Below are positions 2,798-63,208 of a DNA stretch of 64,000 nt, one piece after another. Below the pieces are notes generated by a model. That model had not been told where the DNA came from. It did not search any database and saw only the letters and a program-made list of their open reading frames with translations. Every line of letters starts with the position of its first letter. Position 1 is the stretch's first letter. This DNA is from a phage. The DNA is taken from NCBI GenBank assembly GCA_027262695.1, contig GCA_027262695.1_4722.1. One strand, 5' to 3'. The translations under genes were made by a program, and so were the position numbers.

Positions 2798-5059
2798 TTA
2801 CAATTCGAAATCTTCATCGATAACGCGTTGGGTTAGCACCTTGTCGCTGAAGAACTCCACCTTACGTTGATGGTATTTCCGATGTGCTTCAATCGACGTA
2901 CACACCAGATACCAGAACGTGGGTGTCATACCCTCGAACTTCCCTTTCAGCTGACGTAGTCGACCTAACACCTGAATGTTACCAGTTCTCGACCCCATCG
3001 CTAACGTCATGAACGTCATCACCAAGTCAGGAAGATCGATTCCTGTACCAGCCGATTTCACCGTTGTCACACTGATATCATTATCCAGTAACACCATGAA
3101 ATCTTCTTCAGCGGTATAAGGACCTATCTCCAACTCAGGGATACGTTCACTTAAGTAATGCGATAACGACTTGCACATATCAACGGTTGCACAATACACC
3201 AACATCTTCATGCCTTCCTGATATTGGTTCATGAAACCTTTGATAATAACCGTATAGATAAAGTTGAAATAGGCGAGTTTGAGTTGCTTATTCTTCATGA
3301 TAGACTGTTCGAATACCGTGTGAGAATAAGAACCTCCAAAGCCTTTGTATCGGACTTTATCCGTACTGCGTAGTCGATACGTCACCGCATTTACCGCGAT
3401 GTATTTCTTGTATTCACATTTCGCATAACGTGCTTCTTTCGGATACATCAAATACAGCATCCGCTCGATGAACGGATCGTCAGACACCGCCGTTGCCGAC
3501 AGATAAATGATTTCCGGAATATTCGCGTAACACTTCACTTTGAACAAGAAATGCAGAGCTTCGTGACATTCATCGTGGATTAACAATCCAATGCCTGTTT
3601 TCTCCCAGAACTCGACTGGATGGAAAACATAAGGTGCGACACAGTTGTTCTTTTCATAATCGGTTATATAACGCTGAAACATGTTCAGTGAGAATAACGC
3701 AATTTTGAAATCCAACTCACCTTGTTCTACCAGCGTCTGAAATTCCAACATGCTGTAACGAGGAATGTCGGGATGCGGTGGGTCAGACTGGGCTGTACCA
3801 CGTATCTCGATAACATCACCTGGTTCCATACCGAAGAAACTTAGCAGTGAGCTACGCCATCCAGGCATGTACCTCGGTGACAGAATGATGCCCGTCCGTA
3901 CACCACGTCGGAAGGTGATCTCCTGCGACATTGCGGTGTTGTGCGTGACGATATGGTCTTTAATAACATAAAGGCTTTCGTCGTTGTCCACCGTGATGCA
4001 ACGTGCCTTCGCTTTCACCGTCGGCACGATGCCGCCAATCGCTAAACCAGGAAGCGTGTTAACGGGAAGATCATCTGGAATCTCAATGCCGTCAGGAATA
4101 AGCTTAAGCAAATCGGAATGGTAAATTAATGTCTCCATCGTGTAACTATTGATGGGGCATTTATACGCGATTCCCCCTAACCGATAAGCCAACTCCCAGA
4201 CCTCGGTCATTATCTGCGAATCGGTGGTTCTGACCGCAAGGTGAGCCCACCCTTCTTCAACACGCAGTACGCAACGATCTTTGATGAGTTCTCTGAAACG
4301 ATCAAGACCCACGAGTTCTTTCGGTTCGTAAAGTCGGATTCTTACCGGACGAGATCGTGACGATCTGTCATTAAGACGTTCCATGATTTCACTCGTGCTG
4401 AGCACCTTGTCAGGATCCGTGCATTGCCAGAGATGATCACCACACGCTTCAACCATTCGTCCATCTTCAAAGAAGACAGCGTAAAGCTGAATATCGTCAT
4501 GATCAAAGATAGCAGTTACGTTCGTCGGTAAACCATCCGCGCCGATGACCTCATCACCCACCTGGAGCTCACCAATCGGCTTCCAACCGCTTGGAACCTT
4601 AACGGGTGTATGGAGAGCCAATGCTTTCCCAGACCCCGTGCCTGCGGTGTTTAGGCTCATTCTGAAAGGGGTATCCTTACCCCCATCCATGTACTCCAAC
4701 CATTCTTGCTGATCTTCACGCCACGGAAACTTCCAGTTCTTCACAAACTCCACTTCCTTACCTGGAACCGGATCGTGGTAAACGATTTCCAACCACTCCT
4801 TTCGAATTCCTCGAGAAAAGATAAAATCCAAAAACGACTTCAGCTGTTCACGAAGTAAGTAGACCTCGCTATAATCGCTTCTTGCTGCGGCGTAGGTGTT
4901 GATGGTATCGGTGACCATTCTCCGTGTACGAGGGTCGCGTCGTTTCCGTAGATGCAAACAACGGTCTCGAAGGTAATGGCCAATCAAATGGGCAAATCGA
5001 AGTCCGTATCCGCTCAGCTTCATGCCATGCGAGAAGACGTCGATACGAGCTAACTTCAT
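2798..5059 (-). CDS. SF2 DExH-box helicase precursor containing an intein
   Basis: Walker A 'AGTGSGK' followed after a 229 aa insertion by 'T'; motif II 'LLIHDECHEA', motif III 'LSAT', motif VI-like 'QVLGRLRQ'. The Arg-rich N-terminal 47 aa look non-coding-like, so the true start may be the internal Met near 4918. Confidence 0.75.
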   Translation of the reverse strand: MKLARIDVFSHGMKLSGYGLRFAHLIGHYLRDRCLHLRKRRDPRTRRMVTDTINTYAAARSDYSEVYLLREQLKSFLDFIFSRGIRKEWLEIVYHDPVPGKEVEFVKNWKFPWREDQQEWLEYMDGGKDTPFRMSLNTAGTGSGKALALHTPVKVPSGWKPIGELQVGDEVIGADGLPTNVTAIFDHDDIQLYAVFFEDGRMVEACGDHLWQCTDPDKVLSTSEIMERLNDRSSRSRPVRIRLYEPKELVGLDRFRELIKDRCVLRVEEGWAHLAVRTTDSQIMTEVWELAYRLGGIAYKCPINSYTMETLIYHSDLLKLIPDGIEIPDDLPVNTLPGLAIGGIVPTVKAKARCITVDNDESLYVIKDHIVTHNTAMSQEITFRRGVRTGIILSPRYMPGWRSSLLSFFGMEPGDVIEIRGTAQSDPPHPDIPRYSMLEFQTLVEQGELDFKIALFSLNMFQRYITDYEKNNCVAPYVFHPVEFWEKTGIGLLIHDECHEALHFLFKVKCYANIPEIIYLSATAVSDDPFIERMLYLMYPKEARYAKCEYKKYIAVNAVTYRLRSTDKVRYKGFGGSYSHTVFEQSIMKNKQLKLAYFNFIYTVIIKGFMNQYQEGMKMLVYCATVDMCKSLSHYLSERIPELEIGPYTAEEDFMVLLDNDISVTTVKSAGTGIDLPDLVMTFMTLAMGSRTGNIQVLGRLRQLKGKFEGMTPTFWYLVCTSIEAHRKYHQRKVEFFSDKVLTQRVIDEDFEL
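3938..4624 (-). mobile_element. Intein (229 aa, class-3-like: Ala1, block B Trp, block F Cys, block G Thr-His-Asn, +1 Thr) in the helicase P-loop
   Basis: Insertion lies exactly between Lys and Thr of GSGK|T. N-terminal block A-like 'ALALHTPV...GEL', block B-like 'EACGDHLW', block F-like 'ARCITVDNDESLYV', C-terminal 'IVTHN' then Thr. Removing it restores a canonical 'GTGSGKT' P-loop. No endonuclease-sized domain is evident. Confidence 0.6.
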
Positions 5060-16269: not shown

Positions 16270-16280
16270 AGGTAATATAA
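16270..16280 (-). promoter_or_regulatory. Candidate phage promoter element TTATATTACCT (minus-strand sense)
   Basis: Identical 11-mer also at 27417-27427, in both cases 50-70 nt upstream of a minus-strand start codon. Confidence 0.35.
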
Positions 16281-23118: not shown

Positions 23119-23356
23119 TTAGCATTGGTTATTGATTGCTTCTATTTCATCGATATACGGTTCTACGTCATCGCCCTCCACGAATTCGTTGAACCAACAG
23201 TCAATCGTTGAGATAACCGGTGACTGATGTTCACATTTCTTAGATACCTTAAACGGAACGTTGTTATCCATCATACCGAGTTCGGGTCGGAATCGCCCGA
23301 AATGTTTCGCAGTCCAAATGTCTGGGACGATATGGTTGTTCATAGCGTCTCCGTCG
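23119..23356 (-). CDS. RNAP beta-prime N-terminal subunit, downstream exon (boundary approximate)
   Basis: The frame upstream of the annotated Met reads 'SDGDAMNNHIVPDIW...GMMDNNVPF', matching beta-prime 'DGDQMAVHVPL...LMMSTNNILSP' immediately after NADFDGD. The 5' boundary depends on the 3' splice site (candidates 23356-23370). Confidence 0.55.
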
Positions 23357-24248
23357 CTGTTTGTCGACTATATCTTCATCTTCATTGCGAAGAGACTCTC
23401 GTTTGGGTTTGTGTTTAACAAAGCCTACTCTACTCAACATCGCGTCTTTCGATAGTCTGTGAGCACACATCTTAACGAATATTCGTGGGTTCCTACAGAC
23501 AGGTGAATATTCTTGTTGAGATGCTTCGCTGCGGATTATTCCCGTCCTACCTCTTTTACCATACCCAGTTCATTACGCTGGCCCTCATCGATGTCACCAT
23601 GATGAGTTGGTGTGTAGTCCGATTACAGAAACTTCCCGTCAATTAGAGAGTTTTAACTATGCTCCTGTTACCAGGAACCAGATCCCGACGGTATCAATAA
23701 ATCAACGTAAGTTATTGATTTAATTGAAAAAACTGAAATCTGCATTATCTTAATCTTCGATATGGTTCGCTAAGCCATATCCGCACATACGTGCAGCTTA
23801 CGTCTTTCACGTAAGAAGAGACTATATCTTTCACCCTCAGCTTTACCTGTTAGGGGCTCCCATTTCGGCGGTCGTTTGACCGGTGGTTTCCCACGCCGCT
23901 TGGCCCTAACGCCCGTGAGCGATAGTCGTTGAGCACATCTCCGTTCTGGAGACTTCGCTGCGGATTCCTCAATCCTTACTGCTTTTACCGTACCTGAATG
24001 ATTAGTTCAGCCCCACGCTCTGTTCCCAGGCATGGTTGGTGAGCAAGGCTCTAAGTAGGTTCCCGCTATTAGAGAGTTCCTCGTGACAGCATTACTGTGT
24101 CACTGGGCCTAATGACCCTTTCAAGATCATCACGCTTAACCCGATGGTGTTATCCTGCGGGTCGCGTTTAACCTTGGTGATTTCAAGACATTGGTTACTG
24201 CTACGGTCAAGTGATGGATTTCGAACAAAGCCACACACAATCCCATCG
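23357..24248 (-). ncRNA. Two tandem ORF-less group I intron cores inside the beta-prime N-terminal gene (boundaries approximate)
   Basis: Minus-strand elements for core 1: P AATAGCGGGAA (24060-24070), Q AATCCGCAGC (23957-23966), R GCTCAACGACTATC (23921-23934), S AAGATATAGTC (23820-23830). Core 2: P AATTGACGGGAAG (23632-23644), Q AATCCGCAGC (23528-23537), R GCTCACAGACTATC (23451-23464), S AAGATATAGTC (23366-23376). Stops in all frames; no ORF over 70 aa. Confidence 0.65.
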
Positions 24249-25357
24249 AACGGTGTATCAGCAATAAGCTCGTCATGCAGCTCGCTCATCATCGGATGAT
24301 AATTGCGGACATGCTCTGCAACGAACGCACGGGCTGCTCTTGGTGAATAACCACGATGGAATAACTTGGATTGGATATGTTCTTTATTGGTTAGTGTAAA
24401 TGGTGCGTACGGAAAATGCAGATGATAATAACGATGGTTTGCTGTTATCGAACTGATGACCGTACGTGTGGTGAATGGATGTAATGTACCTAATATGTTC
24501 TTACGTGTGATCCCTTTCTTCTTACCAATGAACTCATCGAAAATCGCCGAGTGATACTGCAACAGCTTCAATTGCACTTTCGCCATCCAGTTTTCTTTCT
24601 TTCTGGCGCTTAGTGGCGTGGTTGGATGATAGATGCTATTCAATGTTCCGATGGCGTCTATCGCACCTTCCATTTTGCTGTCAGCGTAACGTCCTGTTGG
24701 CGTGTTCTCGATCACGAACATCATGGCTGCAGGAAAGCTGATGTACTGACTGAAGAATTTATCCCGATGAATACGGATGAATTCGCGTAGCGTATCAACC
24801 TTCTCCATGTTCTTCGGTCCACGTAGTGTGGGTCCTTTATACAAGATCTCCATGATACGATCGAAGTTCTGTATAAAGCTATTTATACCGCGTCGTATTC
24901 CGAATACATCGAATTGCTGTTCCAGATAGTTCTTAAGTTCGATCGGTCGTTTTACGTTCGGACGGTAACTGGCATCAATGAGCCACGTCATCGTTTCAAA
25001 GCTTTTGATATTCAACTCGCTTGCCAGCACGAGATGGACCAACGGGTTAATGAACGCATCGATACCTTCCGGTACGCGCGCCCAGACCGTTGAACGAATC
25101 TCTTGTTCTGCTGGATAAGTGACAACCGTTTTACAGTTCGGGCACACCGTCCCTAATAACTCACCGCGATTATAGAAACCACAACCGCATTGCGGGGTGA
25201 TATCCAAGGTATCGCTCGAGTAAACACGGGTGATGAAACTGTTTAATTTCTTCTTCTCTTCCACGACCTTCGTATCATAATCGTTCAACAATATCGGCGT
25301 AAAAGGAAGTTCTGCGAGCTGTCTATCGAAACTGACGATATCGAGCATGATGGCCAT
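24249..25357 (-). CDS. RNAP beta-prime N-terminal subunit, upstream exon (3' boundary approximate)
   Basis: Zinc ribbon 'CGCGFYNRGELLGTVCPNC' matches the spacing of E. coli beta-prime 'CLCGKYKRLKHRGVICEKC'; 'HPMMSELHDELIAD' resembles 'HPLVCAAYNAD'. The ORF reads on into the intron ('TPFDGIVCG...') to a stop at 24092. Confidence 0.6.
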
Positions 25358-25399
25358 GGGGTATCTCCTGCAAATGAAAAAGAACGTTAGGACGTATAA

Positions 25400-25424
25400 G
25401 GGAGGGAGGTTGCCCTCCCTCCCG
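25400..25424 (-). terminator. Hairpin GGGAGGGAGG / CCTCCCTCCC
   Basis: 10 bp GC-rich stem directly downstream of the 632 aa gene, followed on the minus strand by a T-rich tract. Confidence 0.55.
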
Positions 25425-25449
25425 TCAGTTTACATCGAACGTTCTTCCA

Positions 25450-27348
25450 TTAGAACAGGTTGAATGCCCCGCCCATGCCGTTACCGCCCACATTCGGACG
25501 ATCGTTACGTGCGTAGATGTTGCCGCTGATGGTACCCAGACCGCGAGCACGTGCTGCCATGTTACCACGAACAGCGGTGCCTGCCAGATGCTGGATGTTC
25601 TCAGGACGGATGGTGAAGCCTGCTTCAGCAGCCGCTTCAATCAGTGCCTGCAACGCCAGCGGATCGAAATCATAACGCATCGCCCAGCCGGTTTGTTCCC
25701 AGCTACCAGACAGAACGCGGTCGATGATTTCGTGACGAGCAACCACACGCTGAGACATCGACATATCGGTACGGTCGAAGCTGTCTTCCCAAGCTTCTAC
25801 GGTATCCGGGTTGGTGATGTTCATCATGTACAGATCGTCCATATCACGAATATCGTGACGGTTACCGTCCTGGTGGTTGTAGTGACCCAGCGGGATACGG
25901 TTACCGGTCGCGTAGACCAGCGGTGAGCCGTACGGATATTTCTTGCTGAAGCAACCCAGGGTAACATCATCGAACGCACGGAAGAGGGCTTTGTAGCCTT
26001 CGGAGTATTCCTGTACGTCCCCTTCAACATTACCCGAGAAGATCTTCTCAGCCGCCGGGATCATACGCAGCAGCCAGCTGTACTCGCCTTCTTCTGGTAC
26101 ATCGATAGAGATCAGCAGAGACGGATACAGAACCTGTTGCAGGAACTTGTAAATCTGCTCGTTGGTTTGCGTAGACAGATCCAGCGGTGCAGTCACTTCA
26201 GGATCCAGCACCATCGCCAGAGCACCTGGGTTATGCGGACCAATACCACGAGCCGCGTTGCTGATTAAAGACTGTGCCCATGCCATGCCGCTGTTCAGCG
26301 TAGCGATGGTACCAATCAGACCCAGCACGAAGCTGTTCGGCGTGAACGCATCCAGTTCCAGCGGATACATGCTGGTCATTACGTAGCGCGGCTGGTACTG
26401 AACAGTTGGCGGTACCGGATAACCGTTAACCAGAACAGGACCTTGCTGGAAGGTCGGGTTCTGCGGGCTGTAGGTCAGATCGATATAACCGGTGGATGCA
26501 ACCAGACGCTGCTGGCTATCGTAATCGCCCATCGCTTGACGGATGCGGTTAGAGATAGTTACAGTAATGTCGGAGCGTACCGGGTTACCCGCGATATCAC
26601 TGTCCTGCATGCCGCTGGTGTTATACTGAACGCTGCTGATCGGCTGGTCGCTTGCCATCATACCCAGGTTGAACTGAGGCAGGCCCAGTCTGTCAGCAAA
26701 ACGCATTTCGGTTGCCGTCTGGATCGCGTTATCTGCTGCAGACAGCAGGGTGGTTGCCAGATGCGCAGATTCAGCAGTGATTTCATTGGTCACAACAGCC
26801 AGACCAGCGATACGTACCGTACCGTTGGCTTTACCACCGATAGCCGCATACATCGCTGCCATGACTTCGTTGATGAACGTGCCGTTCAGGTTATCCACCC
26901 AAGTACATGGTACCAGGATGTTACCGTGAGGACCACGTTCTTCACGACGTGGCAGCGGAGCCAGGCCAGCAACCAGCGGAAGGACGTAACCGAAGAAGTG
27001 GTTATGATCGCCCACTTTTACACCGCTCATCACAACCAGGGTCGGATACGGTACGCTGTACTGGTTCGGGTCAACCGCAACAAAGATGAAGTCGTCTTTG
27101 AACTGGGTATCTTCCAGATATTTCTCCATCAGACGACGGAGATTCAGTACCTGCTCGGAGCCGGTATTACGGCTGATACGACGGCTCAGTGTACGGTTGA
27201 TCGTACGCATCGTATGAGTTACTTTAGGACGGTCAGCAAAATCTGCAGCGGTTTCGACCGCTTCGTTAGCGCGCTGCGCCGCGCGGGTTTCAGCTACGCG
27301 GATGTCTACGTTATCGTTACCGTTATTGTTACGTACGTCTAAGCCCAT
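25450..27348 (-). CDS. chmA: candidate chimallin (phage nucleus shell protein) / abundant 632 aa protein
   Basis: The 632 aa size matches known chimallins; the gene lies immediately upstream of the beta-prime N-terminal gene (the gp54-gp55 arrangement of phiKZ as I recall it) and within about 8 kb of PhuZ. It has an AAGAGGA RBS and the conserved 11-mer upstream. No alignment was performed. Confidence 0.45.
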   Translation of the reverse strand: MGLDVRNNNGNDNVDIRVAETRAAQRANEAVETAADFADRPKVTHTMRTINRTLSRRISRNTGSEQVLNLRRLMEKYLEDTQFKDDFIFVAVDPNQYSVPYPTLVVMSGVKVGDHNHFFGYVLPLVAGLAPLPRREERGPHGNILVPCTWVDNLNGTFINEVMAAMYAAIGGKANGTVRIAGLAVVTNEITAESAHLATTLLSAADNAIQTATEMRFADRLGLPQFNLGMMASDQPISSVQYNTSGMQDSDIAGNPVRSDITVTISNRIRQAMGDYDSQQRLVASTGYIDLTYSPQNPTFQQGPVLVNGYPVPPTVQYQPRYVMTSMYPLELDAFTPNSFVLGLIGTIATLNSGMAWAQSLISNAARGIGPHNPGALAMVLDPEVTAPLDLSTQTNEQIYKFLQQVLYPSLLISIDVPEEGEYSWLLRMIPAAEKIFSGNVEGDVQEYSEGYKALFRAFDDVTLGCFSKKYPYGSPLVYATGNRIPLGHYNHQDGNRHDIRDMDDLYMMNITNPDTVEAWEDSFDRTDMSMSQRVVARHEIIDRVLSGSWEQTGWAMRYDFDPLALQALIEAAAEAGFTIRPENIQHLAGTAVRGNMAARARGLGTISGNIYARNDRPNVGGNGMGGAFNLF

Positions 27349-27416
27349 TTGGGAATCCTCTTTTTCTTAACTTTTAAATGACGTCATTGAATCAGCTTTT
27401 TCTCGCTCATTCACCT

Positions 27417-27427
27417 AGGTAATATAA
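27417..27427 (-). promoter_or_regulatory. Candidate phage promoter element TTATATTACCT (minus-strand sense)
   Basis: About 70 nt upstream of the 632 aa gene start at 27348, inside a 238 bp AT-rich divergent intergenic region; identical 11-mer at 16270-16280. Confidence 0.35.
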
Positions 27428-27586
27428 CCCTGAAATTTTTTTCAATATTGGTGTAACCGTATTGAACGATATAAACCCCCAGGTGAATGCTGCCGAGAAG
27501 CAACATTCTATCTACATATAATCAGGATATGTCTGTAAACTTTTACTTCTCGTCATATCCGTTTACTATCTTCTTACGGAGTTCGT

Positions 27587-28681
27587 ATGTTTCGTGTTTT
27601 AAATAACCTCCCGCGAACATCATCGGGTGTGCAACCCATCCCTCAGAAAGACTACCTAATACGCGAAGTGCAAAGAAACCTACAGACAATCCAGAACCAC
27701 TACCAAGGGTTTACCTTCGCGGTTCAGAGCGATCACATCCTTGCATTGCTGCTCGCACAGCTCCCTATGAGATACGACATCTCAGTACAAACTTACTACG
27801 ACATGATCGCTGACCTTACACCAGAATTGGGGAATCGCGTTAAACTAACAACAGCGCGATACGCGGGTAAGTTATTTAACGGTGCGTTCTATCCGGGATT
27901 GCATGAAGCGATCATTGCAACCAGTGAAAGCCGTCTTATATCGCGTGACGTTCTCGATAACTGGCGTAACTGGTCTCCGGTCAGAATCGTGACACACCCC
28001 TACGCGAATCTTCGCTATATCCCTCTACATCGAAAACCGGTTGAAGAAGGACGGGGTTTTGCGGTCATCATGATCGATGTACCTTTATTAGCGTTGCAGT
28101 ATCGCATGTGGTCATTAGTCATGGGTCACAACGTCGATGGTAAATGGGTGGTTAAAGAACCTGTTACAAGTTTCATTGCCAGTTTTCCTTTGGTCAATGC
28201 ATTATACACACACAACGACGTGGCTATCCGCAATCGTTGCTTATGGGTACCTCCGGCTAAGAATCCGCTCAAGTCACCGATTTACGTCAACGATCTGGAT
28301 AACGTTTTCAGTCAAGTGGTGCTGACCGTCCAACATCAGCTATTACGAAGAAAACGTAGTTACACCGATATGTTGAAACAGATACCGAGTTTATACGAGG
28401 ATCAATTTCAAGCAACACGCATGGGTTACACCATCGATCTTCGACAAACACGGTGGGCAAGGGATCTCGGATGTTTGTCTTTATGGCAACAGCTTGTTAC
28501 CTTGCAAAACGTTTCAGAAAGCGTCGGCTTCAGTAGTCAAACCGACAACGACTTATATCGTGCAGCCGATCGAAGTCTAAAAGAAGGGAATTGGGAATCG
28601 TCTCCTTTACCCGGTGATCTACGACGCGAGGTTATCGCACAGGTTGCTGATCTTTTAAAAATACTTCCCGCTGGTGCATAA
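27587..28681 (+). CDS. hypothetical protein (364 aa)
   Basis: Plus-strand ORF with an ACGGAG RBS, divergent from the 632 aa gene; bidirectional hairpin downstream. Confidence 0.5.
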   Translation: MFRVLNNLPRTSSGVQPIPQKDYLIREVQRNLQTIQNHYQGFTFAVQSDHILALLLAQLPMRYDISVQTYYDMIADLTPELGNRVKLTTARYAGKLFNGAFYPGLHEAIIATSESRLISRDVLDNWRNWSPVRIVTHPYANLRYIPLHRKPVEEGRGFAVIMIDVPLLALQYRMWSLVMGHNVDGKWVVKEPVTSFIASFPLVNALYTHNDVAIRNRCLWVPPAKNPLKSPIYVNDLDNVFSQVVLTVQHQLLRRKRSYTDMLKQIPSLYEDQFQATRMGYTIDLRQTRWARDLGCLSLWQQLVTLQNVSESVGFSSQTDNDLYRAADRSLKEGNWESSPLPGDLRREVIAQVADLLKILPAGA

Positions 28682-28720: not shown

Positions 28721-30874
28721 TTACTCTGCGGTTTCTTTTTTCGGTTGGTAGCTTGCAGCGATATCTTGGGCTAACAGTGTGTTGTTCTTATTCGAAATGA
28801 AAATACCGTAACTTTCCATTAATGCGTAATACGAGCGAACGAGTGTAGAAATCAATCGACGAATATCCATACCTTGGATGAAAATATCGGGAAGCCCAGA
28901 GGCTTCGATCACCGGTAATGGTATCGTTAAATTGCTTATCGTTTTCTTATCGTTACGTACAATCCAATCACGGAAACGTTGTTGTAACCCTTTATCCTCC
29001 CAGGAATCAATCCAATCATTAAGAAGCGTTTTGTTCTTCGTTGCCAATGGTACACGAACCCCAACATAAGGCGGTTCAGGGCAATGGCCGTACGATTGCG
29101 CAAACACCTCTTCCCACATGTCGTACGACTGCTTGGTAACCGCAACATGTGGTTTTACTTTAACGCGTGTTAAGAAATCAGGATCGCCGCGTTTCATCGA
29201 TTCCACGATTTCGTTTTCTAACGCGATGATATCATCAAGTACTAATCTGATACTGATCTTCTCGTTACGTAACAGTTTATCCATGATACCGCACATCATG
29301 CGCTCAACACGTTGTACGATCATTTTTGGTGCTGATGCGTCACGCATAACGGGACCTTTCAATTCCAGTTTCGGCGGATTGATTGGAACCCCTTCACGCA
29401 TGGTCATGTAACCGTAATAGTTTTTACCCATTGAAGTCAACGACAGAATCAAGAACATATACTCGTTCTTCATTTCCATCACGTACATATGCTCTTTCGC
29501 GACGCCGATATTACCCGAACACATTGCCATCAGATGAACCGTAATCTGCGTAACCAGGTAGATAAGCGTATTCGCTAAGCGCGTTGAAATCGGATTGATC
29601 TCCATGTTGCCAAACCGCCACTGAACCCACTCCTGACAGGTAAATACCGTTGAGTCGGTATCGGACAACACACCCACTTCACGGATGGCTGACGGAAACG
29701 CATAAACACCCGCGGGTTGGTTCTCGGTGCGCCAGAACGCCATAATCAGGTCAGCGTAACTCTGGATACGTTGTAACATTAATTTTGTCGTGGCAGCGGT
29801 AAGACGATAACCCAGTTCGTTGCCTTTTTCTAACGCAACGTAAATCGCTTCACCATTTAAGAACTCGGTACACTGTGCTGTAATCCAGGCAACCGTGTTA
29901 TTATCCATGGAGGCGATAATGGCTTTCGCCTCTTCCATCGTTTCAACAGGTTCGGTGGCCAATTCACATAACGAATCAAGGAAACCACAAACAAACTCAG
30001 GATTCAGTTCACGCAACGAATACAAGTTGTTACTATACATGTAACAGGCGCGTTCCAACGGCGTTAAACCGTTAATCAACTCCTGAATAACCAGTTCTTT
30101 TTCCGGGTCGAAAATATAGCGATGCAGGCATTTTGATACATTAGCCCAAACCTCTTCCGGTGTAGGGTAATGTAGCTGGTATTTTACCATCACCTGCTCA
30201 ATGGCTTTACGATCGCTGTTACGGACAATGCTTACGATATTTTCAATCGCGATATCACAATCGTAATAATGAAAATTACCCGCCAGGAACCGCTCGTTAT
30301 TCGCATTCGCCGAACCGGAAGCGCATCGGCATGTCGTGGTTAAACTCGGATGTGCGATCGGGTTATAAAACGGATTGAATTTAGATGCCTGTGTTCCCGA
30401 CAAACTGTTGTTGTCTAACTTGGTGTTAGTCTGTCGTTTATCATGCAGTTCCGCTTCGTCTTTACGTCCATGTGCTTGTGCAATAGACATTTGTTTCTTT
30501 TGTTTCTTACGCAACTTACCGTTTTCAACCGCGAAGTCGCTTAACACACTGGAACGTGTTTCACGTGGATAACAGTTCGCCCATACCGGGGTAATGATTA
30601 AATTATTTTCTTTGATATCGTTGATATACTGACTGAACTTAATAACTTCTTTTTCTCGGTTTCCTTCGGTACGTTGTGTTAAAACAAGACAGTCAGGATC
30701 AACCATCCCGTGTGCACCACCTGGCTTGATAGTATCAAGTACGAACCGTAATGCTTCTTGTTGAGAAATACCACGCATGCGCATTAAGAACAGGGTATAA
30801 TCCTGCACCGCTTCTTTGGTCATATCCAACGTACGACCGTATCCGTTTTCATCGTAAAAGAACGGATTTTCCAT
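28721..30874 (-). CDS. putative divergent family-B-like DNA polymerase (catalytic region)
   Basis: 'GVLSDTDSTVF' resembles pol B motif C (YGDTDS), followed about 70 aa later by 'SMGKNYYGY' (KxY-like). Motif A and B assignments ('YSNNLYSL', 'KLMLQRIQSYA') are weak; the motif A-like segment lacks the catalytic Asp. Confidence 0.3.
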   Translation of the reverse strand: MENPFFYDENGYGRTLDMTKEAVQDYTLFLMRMRGISQQEALRFVLDTIKPGGAHGMVDPDCLVLTQRTEGNREKEVIKFSQYINDIKENNLIITPVWANCYPRETRSSVLSDFAVENGKLRKKQKKQMSIAQAHGRKDEAELHDKRQTNTKLDNNSLSGTQASKFNPFYNPIAHPSLTTTCRCASGSANANNERFLAGNFHYYDCDIAIENIVSIVRNSDRKAIEQVMVKYQLHYPTPEEVWANVSKCLHRYIFDPEKELVIQELINGLTPLERACYMYSNNLYSLRELNPEFVCGFLDSLCELATEPVETMEEAKAIIASMDNNTVAWITAQCTEFLNGEAIYVALEKGNELGYRLTAATTKLMLQRIQSYADLIMAFWRTENQPAGVYAFPSAIREVGVLSDTDSTVFTCQEWVQWRFGNMEINPISTRLANTLIYLVTQITVHLMAMCSGNIGVAKEHMYVMEMKNEYMFLILSLTSMGKNYYGYMTMREGVPINPPKLELKGPVMRDASAPKMIVQRVERMMCGIMDKLLRNEKISIRLVLDDIIALENEIVESMKRGDPDFLTRVKVKPHVAVTKQSYDMWEEVFAQSYGHCPEPPYVGVRVPLATKNKTLLNDWIDSWEDKGLQQRFRDWIVRNDKKTISNLTIPLPVIEASGLPDIFIQGMDIRRLISTLVRSYYALMESYGIFISNKNNTLLAQDIAASYQPKKETAE

Positions 30875-35255: not shown

Positions 35256-36236
35256 TTAGAAAAGCAAGAAACCGCTGTTCTTCGCTTCCGCTACGGTTTC
35301 ATCACCCACCTTCGGTGCTTGTTGACGTGCGTTACGATGTTCAACAAAACGTTTTGCTTCGTCCGCGATTTGTTTGATAATACCCCCTAAACGATCGGTG
35401 CTTAATACGAACGATGTCGCTTCACGAATCGGGCTGCTTTCCGGCACAAAACCATCACAGCTATAAATAGCATTAACACCCATGACTTTCGTCGCGTCTT
35501 TCGGATACAACGTACAGAAAGCAATCGGGCTATCATGCTCTTTGGTCCACTCGTATCCCATGAACGTGTTCAATTCGGTGATGGTCGGTTCCAAACCGGT
35601 AACACGAGGATGGTTTAAGAAGTTCTCCAGATCAGCGCTATCCAAGCGACGGTTCTCACCAGAGAACAACACACAGAGTTGGCTGATAACGATCTGGACA
35701 TCCAGGTTAACGTCTTGCTCTGATTTTCCGTTTTCGCCATTCATGTGGTAGCTGACAATCACAGGACGTTTCAACCCTTCTGCGGCTGCCATCAGTCCTT
35801 TGAACGTACGGTCAGCATTGATGGTCTGACGTTCATCGTCAAAGGAGGCAACGATACAGCAAACAACACGCTCACCGCGTTCCAGCAGGTTAGCGACCAG
35901 CGCAGGGCCTGCAACGGAACCCGAACCACCGCTTAAGCTGAAGACGACGATGTTGAATTTACCTGGCGTATGCTTATTAAGAATACCTGGGATTTGTGAG
36001 CAGATCAGTTCAGCATTCTCATCGCGTTTCTTACCGGAACCATCAAGCTCGCGGCCTGCTGCATCTTTAAAGATGTAAATGTGATCATCGTCCAGTGCGC
36101 TATCACGTAGGTTAGCACGGCTGGTATCAACATACGTCATGCTGTGTAATCCTTTCGCGACTTCGCCTTCAAATGCTGAGCCGATTTCGCCACCACAACC
36201 ACCAACCGCCCAAATATGTACTTGGTTCTCTTGCAT
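35256..36236 (-). CDS. phuZ: PhuZ-like phage tubulin
   Basis: Tubulin-type GTP-binding loops 'AVGGCGGEIG' and 'FSLSGGSGSVAGP' (cf. PhuZ 'YSLGGGSGSVLGP'); 326 aa matches PhuZ size; AGGAG RBS. Confidence 0.75.
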   Translation of the reverse strand: MQENQVHIWAVGGCGGEIGSAFEGEVAKGLHSMTYVDTSRANLRDSALDDDHIYIFKDAAGRELDGSGKKRDENAELICSQIPGILNKHTPGKFNIVVFSLSGGSGSVAGPALVANLLERGERVVCCIVASFDDERQTINADRTFKGLMAAAEGLKRPVIVSYHMNGENGKSEQDVNLDVQIVISQLCVLFSGENRRLDSADLENFLNHPRVTGLEPTITELNTFMGYEWTKEHDSPIAFCTLYPKDATKVMGVNAIYSCDGFVPESSPIREATSFVLSTDRLGGIIKQIADEAKRFVEHRNARQQAPKVGDETVAEAKNSGFLLF

Positions 36237-46223: not shown

Positions 46224-46235
46224 CGTTGTATTACC

Positions 46236-61550: not shown

Positions 61551-62696
61551 TTATTTGGCTTCGTTAAAATAAATATCAACGGCACGTTCCGTTGCGTAGA
61601 GAAGACCCAGATTCACGGTCCCTACCACTTCCGGTGAACCGATGATACGGTTAGCGATACTGGTGCCACTGAAGATAGCATCAAGGGTGTGCCCGTCTTC
61701 GGTTTTGTTCACACCATGACCCACGGAAGAGACAACGGATTTTGCCTGTGCTGCGAAGGTACCTTTATCCCCCATTCCCGCACCCAGGTCGTAACGCATG
61801 AAAATACGGATGGCGATCTGGTTCTCGCCTAACGGATTACCGTCTATTCTCACGTTACTGTTGTTGATGCGTCCCGTTGTTGCTTCGTTGAGTTTCAGTT
61901 CCTTAACGCGTTTAGCTCGCGCTTTATCCGCTTCACCCACAAGTGCTGCCATGGTTTCACTCATGTCTTCAATCTGGGCACGATACAACACATCGATCTG
62001 TACGACTTCACCATGCACGTCAGCCCGTGGGTTATACTGACTCATACGGCGTAACGCTTCAACCGCTTCCTGACTTTCATCGCTCAGATCGGTCGCAATC
62101 GGTTCTTCCAGTGTTGCCAGGATCGTCCGAGGTTCAACATGATCGCCGATTTTCACCAAACCACGAATGTTGAGATGAGCGTCAACAATGAGCGTACGAC
62201 TCTTAATCGATGGTGTTACGAGACGATCAGCGAGATTGTCGAAGATATACGAACTGTCCTCGTGCGTTTCTGGAATATCCAAAATACCAACCAAAGACAG
62301 AACGCCTGCGCGCCAAACCACCTGACCTGGGTTCCACCAATCCCGTTTGAAATAAAGACGATGGAATACCACTACATCCTGATCCTTAACGCGATCACCA
62401 ACTTTATAATCGGTAATGAGATCGTGAGGATAATACTTACCTGGTCCTTTCCCGATTATCGTACCGAGTTGGAAAACCTCTTCCCCTAATTCTGGATCGT
62501 CGTATTGTATCGTAAGCGCTGTTTTGGTGACCTTCTTCACAACACCATCGCCTTGAGCAGCTGCTGCGAAGAGTTTACCAACACGATGCGCGATAACAGT
62601 CTCACCACCTGTACGCCATGGTTGTACGTCGTAACCTTCAGCAGCTATCATGCGGTTGTGCTGTATACCTATAAATACGAGACGCTTTGGCGAAAT
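61551..62696 (-). CDS. RNAP beta subunit fragment, downstream exon (5' boundary approximate)
   Basis: The frame opened upstream of the annotated Met reads 'RLVFIGIQHNRMIAAEGYDVQPW' (cf. beta '[25 protein letters not shown]'); also 'HEDSSYIF' (cf. NFEDSI) and 'GAGMGDKGTFAAQA' (cf. [13 protein letters not shown]). Confidence 0.55.
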   Translation of the reverse strand: MSPKRLVFIGIQHNRMIAAEGYDVQPWRTGGETVIAHRVGKLFAAAAQGDGVVKKVTKTALTIQYDDPELGEEVFQLGTIIGKGPGKYYPHDLITDYKVGDRVKDQDVVVFHRLYFKRDWWNPGQVVWRAGVLSLVGILDIPETHEDSSYIFDNLADRLVTPSIKSRTLIVDAHLNIRGLVKIGDHVEPRTILATLEEPIATDLSDESQEAVEALRRMSQYNPRADVHGEVVQIDVLYRAQIEDMSETMAALVGEADKARAKRVKELKLNEATTGRINNSNVRIDGNPLGENQIAIRIFMRYDLGAGMGDKGTFAAQAKSVVSSVGHGVNKTEDGHTLDAIFSGTSIANRIIGSPEVVGTVNLGLLYATERAVDIYFNEAK

Positions 62697-63208
62697 CCAG
62701 CAAAATACAATTACTGTGCGTCTAGATTGTTCAGATAAGGTCGTTAATCTTATCCCGGTGGTGATGATAGGTGCATCACCAACCCGCTTGCGCTCTCACG
62801 CAAGAGCAGACTATATCACATCTCGTTTCAAACGGTGCTTCTTCAGCGCCTCAACGAGAGTTCACTTCTTCCCAGCGCATCCAGCGCCATTCTCTTATCC
62901 AAGGAGAATGCCTCACTCGAGGGGTACAGGGGGATGAATCCCTTAGTCGTTGAACCGTCACCCTAGAACGTTTCACAACGATCCTTAGGCGATTGGCTGC
63001 GGATTGTCCTTAAGCTATTATCTGTTTTATAACCATACCGTCTTTCTTTTCAGAATCCGTTTTGGTCGATAACAGCGATGGATGTCTTCGCAATTCAGTG
63101 AATCTCATCTACATGTCGCCATATAGACGGACCCTGCTATTAAAAGCGTTAATCATCTCTGTCGGCAGCAGGTACTGCAAGTGCCGATGTACTCATTATT
63201 GACGAGCT
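62697..63208 (-). ncRNA. ORF-less group I intron in the RNAP beta gene (boundaries approximate)
   Basis: Minus-strand P AATAGCAGGGT (63131-63141), Q AATCCGCAGC (62996-63005), R GGTTCAACGACTAAGG (62941-62956), S GATATAGTC (62809-62817), then three P9-like hairpins (CTTGCG/CGCAAG, GGTGATG/CATCACC, GATAAG/CTTATC). It separates two in-frame beta segments. Confidence 0.6.

Follow-up and report, generated by a model that had tools for sequence, protein, structure and literature searches.

The minus-strand gene at 25450-27348 of the window (the whole 64-kb stretch of DNA that was analyzed) encodes, with a probability of about 0.96, the chimallin (ChmA) of a Goslar-like jumbo phage in the genus Goslarvirus, family Chimalliviridae, with the mechanism and regulation that we propose below. 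Nothing in the sequence evidence opposed its identification as a chimallin. The gene and the elements that flank it are the following.

27409-27443, minus strand: putative early (virion-RNAP type) promoter block GAAAAAAATTTCAGGGTTATATTACCTAGGTGAAT, 35 nt, containing the 11-mer TTATATTACCT; recognized by conservation.
27356-27362, minus strand: ribosome-binding site AAGAGGA (contains GAGGA), read from the sequence, 7 nt 5' of the chmA ATG.
25450-27348, minus strand: chmA (chimallin, major phage-nucleus shell protein), from its open reading frame (ORF) and homology.
25373-25451, minus strand: long hairpin in the spacer between chmA and beta-prime-N, from folding and conservation.

The original prediction had described a 632 aa ORF with a ribosome-binding site but had not stated its strand. 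Both were found, on the minus strand. In the ORF list the frame is intact, starting with an ATG at 27348 and encoding 632 aa (computed mass, 69.6 kDa; pI, 5.1). The prediction had proposed a chimallin homologue from size and context and had suggested a comparison with known chimallins in profile or structure databases. ChmA matched Pfam family PF25677 (Chimallin_Phikzvirus) over residues 22-596 with 90.5 bits (cut-off, 27) and PHROG 4795 ("nuclear shell protein") at 1.4e-53, and these were the only Pfam and PHROG families matched. All four of its PDB matches were also chimallins. They included Goslar gp189 (7SQT_A), which was identical at 591 of 632 residues (94%) over residues 1-632, and the chimallin structures of PhiPA3 (1.7e-20; PhuN is PhiPA3's chimallin) and 201phi2-1 (9e-11). 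A tblastn search found homologues in 102 phage records, mostly of phiKZ-like jumbo phages and many annotated as "nuclear shell protein." Judged from these alignments, ChmA is the orthologue of Goslar gp189.

Goslar ChmA is gp189 in MK327938, YP_009820873/HOV27_gp246 in RefSeq, and PDB entries 7SQT, 7SQU, and 7SQV. It has a cryo-EM structure, was imaged as a shell in infected cells, and has been shown to assemble itself into a square lattice around replicating phage DNA (PMC9365700). Its known assemblies include cubes of 22 nm and sheets. The window's ChmA, 94% identical to it, would be expected to build such a lattice. The two phages have in common the start, tail segments, neighbors, promoter block, and downstream hairpin, and protein lengths within one residue of each other. 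There were 41 differences between the proteins, of which 40 were substitutions and the other an additional N-tail Asn. They were concentrated in the N-tail (8 of 47 residues) and in residues 213-220 and 437-475. A study of 201phi2-1 found the chimallin N-tail to be dispensable (PMC9365700). The two predicted domains of the core, alpha/beta at the N terminus and GNAT-like at the C terminus, aligned to 7SQT_A with only a one-residue gap. The tail segments NTS, CTS1, and CTS2 were all present and differed from Goslar at 0 of 14, 1 of 24, and 2 of 13 residues, respectively, within boundaries that are approximate because they were transferred from 201phi2-1 through an alignment of ~20% identity. 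The acidic pI fits the negatively charged shell faces reported for chimallin (PMC9365700).

More distant relatives were also compared. 201phi2-1 gp105, whose structure (PDB 7SQQ) founded the family, is ~20% identical to the window's ChmA and aligns with it in the same N-tail/NTS/NTD/CTD/CTS arrangement. In Goslar-type chimallin, CTS2 is shorter and makes different contacts (PMC9365700), and there is a lineage-specific insertion near residues 422-428. phiKZ gp54 and PhiPA3 gp53 (PhuN; PDB 8FNE), from phages with Pseudomonas hosts, are in the same family (21-22% identity in a five-protein alignment), and their shell genes are directly upstream of nvRNAP beta-prime-N.

The surroundings of chmA are also those of Goslar. 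Phages of the Chimalliviridae typically carry split multisubunit RNAPs of both the virion and the non-virion type and, in most cases, PhuZ. PhuZ, nvRNAP beta-prime-N, and a divergent family B DNA polymerase are all in the Goslar gene order, and two of these genes are upstream of chmA.

28721-30874, minus strand: divergent family B DNA polymerase, a jumbo-phage replication gene (Pfam PF20286, 4e-202).
35256-36236, minus strand: PhuZ tubulin (PDB 9PM9, 6.5e-217; phiKZ gp39, 3ZBP, 2.6e-29; 201phi2-1, 3R4V, 6e-15).

The polymerase gene is likewise beside chimallin in Goslar, and PhuZ is at the same position as in Goslar. The PhuZ stop is 7.9 kb from the chmA start, in agreement with the predicted distance of ~8 kb. 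The phiKZ map given in the prediction, with gp54 beside gp55, was correct as well. Chimallin adjoins beta-prime-N in phiKZ, PhiPA3, and Goslar, and 201phi2-1 has a small ORF, gp106, between them. Overall, the window was colinear with Goslar 145138-209212 (61.7 of 64 kb aligned, ~87% DNA identity), and that Goslar region carries further RNAP subunit genes. By the ICTV rule of thumb, a genus corresponds to at least ~70% nucleotide identity and a species to at least ~95%. Therefore, as far as the 64-kb window can predict, its phage would be in the same genus as Goslar, for which 38 species have been proposed, but a different species. One window-only segment relative to Goslar (3941-4621) was suspected to be an intron, but it had no Rfam match and proved to be an in-frame intein. 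This intein, in the P-loop of a helicase gene, is absent from Goslar.

We also analyzed the region upstream of chmA, where an 11-mer had been noticed about 70 nt from the gene. This was TTATATTACCT at 27427-27417 (minus strand), with its 3' end 69 nt before the chmA ATG. Two exact and two one-mismatch copies occurred in the window, compared with 0.77 expected, and four copies were reached in 0 of 100 shuffles. One one-mismatch copy, at 46226 on the plus strand, was set aside because its mapped position falls between two minus-strand genes of Goslar and it is probably a chance occurrence. The 8-mer core TATATTAC had four copies in the window, all of them on the minus strand, intergenic, and just upstream of minus-strand genes. 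The promoter block was identical in Goslar, where the flanking spacer and coding DNA diverge. Near-identical blocks precede the ATG of phiKZ gp54 by 73 nt and that of 201phi2-1 gp105 by 75 nt, and the window's block matches published early-promoter strings of phiKZ and 201phi2-1 (PMC7058600, Table 2). In the 400 nt that precede PhiPA3 gp053, no exact TATATTAC was found, so the promoter comparison is confined to phiKZ, 201phi2-1, and Goslar. An early primary transcription start site has been mapped for phiKZ gp54 (PMC8244752), and RNA-seq supports early expression of Goslar chmA (PMC10541120). By analogy, we infer that the block before chmA acts as an early virion-RNAP promoter in the window's phage. 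A host-RNAP promoter was rejected because a sigma-70 scan found no more sites in the window than expected by chance and none in the chmA upstream spacer. As a separate observation, the 35-nt block is nearly unchanged from the Pseudomonas phage phiKZ to the E. coli phage of the window, while the encoded protein has drifted to ~20% identity.

Downstream of chmA, the hairpin has the core GGGAGGGAGG-GCAA-CCTCCCTCCC at 25423-25400, and UUUUUCAUUU follows its outer stem. Its minimum free energy was -41.1 kcal/mol (z = -6.4), and equally good folds occurred in 0 of 200 shuffles. The spacer that contains it was identical to that of Goslar at 90 of 92 nt, compared with 90% identity for coding DNA. A scan for simple terminators did not call the hairpin and gave hits at chance level, and a clean T-run after the hairpin is absent. 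The hairpin is probably a terminator or attenuator, or a 3' stabilizer of the chmA mRNA.

Other explanations for this gene were weighed against the same data. A size of 632 aa also fits a jumbo-phage structural protein, and the opposite-strand neighbor at 27587-28681 had a weak match to the PHROG "virion structural protein" (3.9e-11). However, homology to capsid or virion proteins, which had been named beforehand as the finding that would speak against chimallin, was not seen among the Pfam, PHROG, and PDB matches of ChmA itself, and every family that it matched was chimallin. Its gene is among early and replication genes and under an early-type promoter, and in Goslar the genes annotated as head protease, terminase, and tail sheath are 17-31 kb away. 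These findings make a structural role in the virion, in the capsid or elsewhere, extremely unlikely. It is also scarcely credible that ChmA functions as an enzyme, either a GNAT-type acetyltransferase or a toxin-like one, instead of as a lattice protein. The C-terminal domain of chimallin does have a GCN5-related N-acetyltransferase fold, nearest to the AtaT toxin, but chimallin is without the AtaT active-site residues (PMC9365700). The window's ChmA is 94% identical to this inactive scaffold, and Pfam found no acetyltransferase family in it.

The gene might instead be a decaying, nonfunctional copy in a defective phage remnant of a bacterial assembly. The exact ChmA protein is recorded only from bacterial and metagenome assemblies, where its name is "hypothetical protein [Escherichia coli O157]." Against this, the ORF is full length, with a dN/dS of 0.09 relative to Goslar, which indicates purifying selection, and its promoter, ribosome-binding site, and hairpin are conserved. 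Colinearity with Goslar extends over the 64-kb window, the neighboring genes are intact, and at least 16-20 contigs carry the exact sequence. These contigs reach 248 kb (ABJYRE010000004.1), the size of a whole phage. Furthermore, publications regard such contigs as phages that replicate and are lytic or persistent (PMC12768965; bioRxiv 10.1101/2024.12.31.630880). We consider a decaying copy very unlikely.

As a functional chimallin, ChmA would act as described for Goslar and 201phi2-1 (PMC9365700, PMC10541120). The injected genome would first be transcribed by the virion RNA polymerase in an early-infection vesicle, and chmA mRNA would be among the early transcripts and be translated in the cytoplasm. 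We propose that this transcript starts a few bases past the TATATTAC block, which would give it a leader of ~60 nt. Each protomer would consist of the N-terminal alpha/beta domain and the catalytically dead GNAT-like C-terminal domain. The NTS would hold protomers in square tetramers, and the flexible CTS1 and CTS2 tails would join these into a one-protein-thick lattice with pores of ~1.4 nm (PMC9365700, PMC10541120). The resulting shell would surround the replicating phage DNA, split transcription from translation, and bar host nucleases (PMC9365700, PMC10541120). In Goslar, ChmA knock-down reduced plaquing at least 10,000-fold and arrested infection at the vesicle stage (PMC10541120). The hairpin past the chmA stop may terminate or stabilize most chmA transcripts, with read-through supplying an intron-split beta-prime-N.

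The adjacent gene had been predicted to encode the beta-prime N-terminal subunit. The adjacency was confirmed: the nvRNAP beta-prime-N ORF (24092-25357, minus strand, 421 aa) begins 92 nt past the chmA stop and matches phiKZ gp55 (PDB 7OGP_A, E 9e-60) and PHROG 2987 (1e-113). However, this ORF is not the whole gene. It represents exon 1 only, its tail down to 24092 being intron read-through, and the gene is split as follows.

24115-25357, minus strand: beta-prime-N exon 1, ending ...MILKG-Y (first base of the Y codon); boundary from the intron-less Goslar allele.
23749-24114, minus strand: group I intron A, 366 nt, absent from Goslar (Rfam RF00028, 26.9 bits, E 2e-4).
23736-23748, minus strand: micro-exon ATAATGCAGATTT, 13 nt, encoding (Y)NADF; the spliced frame is intact.
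23357-23735, minus strand: group I intron B, 379 nt, without an endonuclease ORF (RF00028, 49.2 bits, E 4e-11).
23119-23356, minus strand: beta-prime-N last exon (DGDAMNNH...NNQC-stop), a separate 74-aa ORF in the ORF list.

At gathering thresholds, Rfam called a single intron in the window (62787-63153). Both chmA-side introns surfaced only in an E-value scan, where intron B is just under the cut-off of 50 bits. Even so, their presence is well supported, and we regard it as highly probable. Intron A is a window-only segment relative to Goslar, with a U before its 5' splice site and a terminal G. The RF00028 match for intron B stops exactly at 23357. Goslar has the same intron B plus an HNH gene, and NADFDGDA is contiguous in an intron-B-less allele (L002). 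The predicted splice junctions are AAAGGGT / ATAATGCAGATTT / CGACGGAGAC. The spliced product of 497 aa gave an unbroken alignment to spliced phiKZ gp55 (7OGP_A residues 41-495), and the 7OGP_A score rose from 206 bits for the unspliced exon 1 ORF to 255.7 bits after splicing.

The two introns interrupt codons of the catalytic, Mg-binding NADFDGD loop. Sibling contigs have a third intron site and the single phiKZ intron a fourth, all within ~30 nt, and the micro-exons left by these introns are 13 and 16 nt. It is conceivable, although we think it improbable, that the introns are more than selfish passengers and that their splicing could gate nvRNAP production, timing the early-to-middle switch relative to shell assembly.

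In public records, exact ChmA matches came solely from draft assemblies and metagenomes, and a chmA megablast against 5,426 complete E. coli genomes gave no match. The 90% cluster has 249 members, and the sampled records, from E. coli O157 and Salmonella assemblies, were all named "hypothetical protein." Fifteen sampled members were 96.8-99.4% identical to Goslar, and the window's ChmA was the outlier (92.7-94.3% to all). Our analysis supplies the correct name for this protein, which would place the source contig among the Goslar-like jumbo phages that form a nucleus. The gene is unremarkable, having been described before in a known phage lineage, and asks nothing new of the phage nucleus. Publications already cover the chimallin family, its structure, assembly mechanism, and essentiality, and its presence in contigs of Goslar-like phages from assemblies. 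Hundreds of these phages have been described from bacterial assemblies in two papers, one of which checked for chimallin, and the identification is relevant to the reported persistence of lytic Goslar-like phages in isolates of clinical and food-borne origin (PMC12768965; bioRxiv 10.1101/2024.12.31.630880). Three side observations may be of modest interest to specialists: the introns clustered at the catalytic loop of the RNAP, the intein at the P-loop of the helicase, and a chimallin promoter conserved across genera.

The original prediction was of a chimallin (phage-nucleus shell protein) homologue, a 632-aa ORF at 25450-27348 with a ribosome-binding site, next to the gene for the nonvirion RNA polymerase (nvRNAP) beta-prime N-terminal subunit (beta-prime-N) and about 8 kb from PhuZ. 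The ORF list has this ORF on the minus strand, which the prediction had not stated, and the other features were also found. AAGAGGA lies 7 nt before the ATG, on the same strand. The ORF at 24092-25357 (minus strand) lies 92 nt past the chmA stop codon, and its phiKZ match is the beta-prime-N protein gp55 (7OGP_A, 9e-60; PHROG 2987). PhuZ is 7.9 kb from chmA. The gene order given for phiKZ, gp54 beside gp55, agrees with the phiKZ record, where PHIKZ055 comes after the shell-protein gene PHIKZ054. The 11-mer noted about 70 nt upstream, TTATATTACCT, is at 27427-27417, its 3' end 69 nt before the chmA ATG.

25450..27348, minus strand: chmA, 632 aa, ATG start (ORF list)
27443-27409, minus strand: early-promoter-type block GAAAAAAATTTCAGGGTTATATTACCTAGGTGAAT, 35 nt, with the 11-mer as its core
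35256-36236, minus strand: PhuZ (9PM9, 6.5e-217; phiKZ gp39, 2.6e-29; 201phi2-1 PhuZ, 6e-15)

Among all PDB sequences, the top match of the ChmA protein was 7SQT_A, "Chimallin" (also 7SQU and 7SQV), from the E. coli jumbo phage Goslar (1345.6 bits over residues 1-632; E-value printed as 0). Further PDB matches were PhiPA3 PhuN (1.7e-20) and 201phi2-1 chimallin (9e-11). ChmA also matched Pfam PF25677, Chimallin_Phikzvirus (90.5 bits; cut-off, 27), and PHROG 4795, "nuclear shell protein" (1.4e-53). By BLASTP, 591 of 632 residues (94%) were identical to the Goslar gene product, with one extra Asn. The PDB, Pfam, and PHROG matches, together with this identity, bear out the prediction of a chimallin homologue. 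Homology to a capsid or other virion protein had been named as what would count against it. No capsid or virion family match was found in Pfam, PHROG, or PDB, and the chimallin reading stands. A tblastn search of 50,697 phage records found homologues in 102, mostly phiKZ-like jumbo phages; the only close relative was in Goslar, and the second-best record was 24% identical. All features open to in silico testing place ChmA in the chimallin family, and it is the orthologue of a protein characterized both structurally and genetically.

By analogy with published work (PMC9365700, PMC10541120), chmA would be transcribed early by injected virion RNAP within the early-infection vesicle. ChmA tetramers would be locked by an N-terminal tail segment (NTS) and connected by two C-terminal ones (CTS1 and CTS2), giving a square lattice that is flexible and has ~1.4-nm pores, and the genome would then be passed into the ChmA shell. 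Knockdown of ChmA in Goslar reduced plaquing at least 10,000-fold (PMC10541120).

Comparison of chmA with its Goslar orthologue gave dN 0.034, dS 0.37, and omega 0.09, so the gene is under purifying selection. We aligned ChmA with the 201phi2-1, phiKZ, and PhiPA3 chimallins and transferred the 201phi2-1 segment boundaries (PMC9365700). Differences between ChmA and the Goslar protein were distributed as follows.

N-tail: 8/47
NTS: 0/14
N-terminal domain: 11/163
C-terminal domain: 18/359
CTS1: 1/24
CTS2: 2/13

In 201phi2-1 chimallin, deletion of the N-tail had no effect on shell incorporation, but proteins lacking the NTS or CTS no longer self-assembled in vitro (PMC9365700). Because the N-tail is dispensable there and the NTS and CTS are needed, the pattern in ChmA fits that expected of a working lattice protein. 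Its pI of 5.1 agrees with acidic shell faces. Among 16 Goslar-type sequences, variable positions were concentrated in the N-tail, 213-220, and 437-475. The 90% cluster of ChmA has 249 members, and ChmA was the most divergent among the 15 sampled (92.7-94.3% identical to all of them), whereas those 15 were 96.8-99.4% identical to Goslar. We also compared dN/dS for 25450-27348 with that for 24117-25357, 27587-28678, 28724-30874, and 35259-36236. Omega versus Goslar was 0.09 for chmA but 0.01-0.03 for beta-prime-N, PolB, PhuZ, and the gp245 homologue, and the chmA dS of 0.37 was below the 0.5-0.8 of these four neighbors. These values indicate that chmA is evolving faster than its neighbors at the protein level.

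The DNA of the chmA region is 90.7% identical to that of Goslar. Colinearity with Goslar (145138-209212) extends over the whole window, with ~87% identity across 61.7 of 64 kb, which places this phage in Goslar's genus as a separate species. At least 20 public contigs encode an identical ChmA protein, among them L003 (ABJYRE010000004.1, 248 kb, NCBI assembly GCA_027262755.1), which equals the window across the 1,151 nt compared. The window appears to be part of a complete Goslar-like phage genome, one of the contigs assembled from an E. coli O157 isolate. The NCBI entry for the identical protein is EKH6014506.1, "hypothetical protein [Escherichia coli O157]," and the sampled NCBI-named cluster members, from E. 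coli and Salmonella assemblies, are all named "hypothetical protein." Goslarvirus has been expanded from a single genome to 237 (38 species), found in bacterial assemblies (PMC12768965), and 59 of 60 Goslar-like assembly phages have a protein >90% similar to Goslar chimallin (bioRxiv 10.1101/2024.12.31.630880). The ChmA protein thus already has public database entries, which leave it unnamed, and its lineage and the chimallin content of that lineage have been published.

The window has two exact and two one-mismatch copies of the 11-mer (0.77 expected; 0/100 shuffles gave four). Its 8-mer core, TATATTAC, occurs at 16272, 21548, 27419, and 56356, each time on the minus strand, between genes, and directly upstream of a minus-strand ORF. 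Of the three further copies (16272, 21548, and 56356), the two inside the compared Goslar stretch are conserved there. The 35-nt block is the same in Goslar, and the remaining chmA upstream spacer has substitutions and indels. Near-same blocks (L008 about 1036-1076 and L010 about 492-532) precede phiKZ gp54 (...GAAAAAAATTTGAGATTTATATTACTAAATTGAAT, 73 nt before the ATG) and 201phi2-1 gp105 (...GAAAAAATCTCAGATTTATATTACTACTGTGAAT, 75 nt before the ATG). The distance to the chimallin ATG is 69-75 nt in all three phages, with proteins only ~20% identical. The block agrees with published early-promoter strings (PMC7058600, Table 2), and phiKZ gp54 has a primary TSS with an early motif and a secondary TSS with a middle motif (PMC8244752). 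A motif scan of 201phi2-1 put an early promoter some 3 kb ahead of gp107, the beta-prime gene (PMC11512511), a position that would fall just before gp105. No sigma-70-like site was found in the chmA upstream spacer.

Past the chmA stop codon is a long hairpin (-41.1 kcal/mol, z = -6.4) whose 10-bp GC core is closed by a GCAA loop; UUUUUCAUUU comes after its outer stem. The spacer between chmA and beta-prime-N is identical to that of Goslar at 90/92 positions, compared with ~90% for coding DNA. The hairpin may be a terminator or attenuator, or it may stabilize the 3' end of an abundant chmA mRNA, and some transcription would read through into beta-prime-N. Part of this regulatory anatomy of chmA (promoter block and hairpin) is directly visible in the DNA, and part of it we infer.

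Two group I introns interrupt the beta-prime-N gene adjoining chmA (23119-25357, minus strand) within the codons of the catalytic NADFDGD motif, and the end of its "421-aa" ORF is intron read-through. An Rfam scan by E-value placed introns at 23726-23357 (49.2 bits, E 4e-11) and 24135-23798 (26.9 bits). Boundaries were set by Goslar, which is without intron A, and by contig L002, which is without intron B.

Ends at 24115, minus strand: beta-prime-N exon 1
24114-23749, minus strand: intron A, group I
23748-23736, minus strand: micro-exon, 13 nt
23735-23357, minus strand: intron B, group I
23356-23119, minus strand: last exon; the listed "74-aa ORF" (23119-23343) is in fact this exon

U precedes each 5' splice site, and the final base of each intron is G. 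The spliced frame reads ...MILKG-YNADFDGD-AMNNH..., and the 497-aa product can be aligned with spliced phiKZ gp55 (7OGP_A 41-495) across the junction without a break. Splicing raises the 7OGP_A score from 206 to 255.7 bits. In sibling contigs with identical or near-identical chimallin, introns are present or absent in a mosaic that includes a third site (C), after DGDA, and HNH-bearing versions.

Goslar (L001 17498-19320): B+HNH and C
L005 (4617-6042): B+HNH
L006 (4514-5354 onward): A and B+HNH
L004 (5388-5743): A, B, and C, with micro-exons of 13 and 16 nt
L002 (6600-6983): A and C, without B

The three sites in Goslar and the sibling contigs lie within ~30 nt, and phiKZ has its own intron at a fourth site, N|A of the same NADFDGD motif.

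The window has other insertions. The window's homologue of Goslar gp207, a large RNAP beta-type subunit, is interrupted after ...VDRDD by a further group I intron (62787-63153, minus strand; Rfam RF00028, 51 bits, exceeding the gathering threshold; feature region, 62689-63153); gp207 itself is intron-free at this site. An SF2 helicase (2798-5059, minus strand) has an in-frame intein of ~229 aa in its P-loop, GSGK|T (Walker-A); the intein covers roughly residues 146-374 of 753 (DNA, ~3941-4621), and the Goslar homologue, gp164, is without it. The intein starts with Ala and ends in ...THN|T. Its first 69 residues match both the gp41-1 intein and the M. smegmatis DnaB intein (PDB 6RIX, 1e-13). 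A segment at 548-1205 has no Goslar counterpart. It falls within the gp161 homologue (annotation, BspA-family leucine-rich-repeat surface protein) and probably represents a variable repeat or a host-range region.
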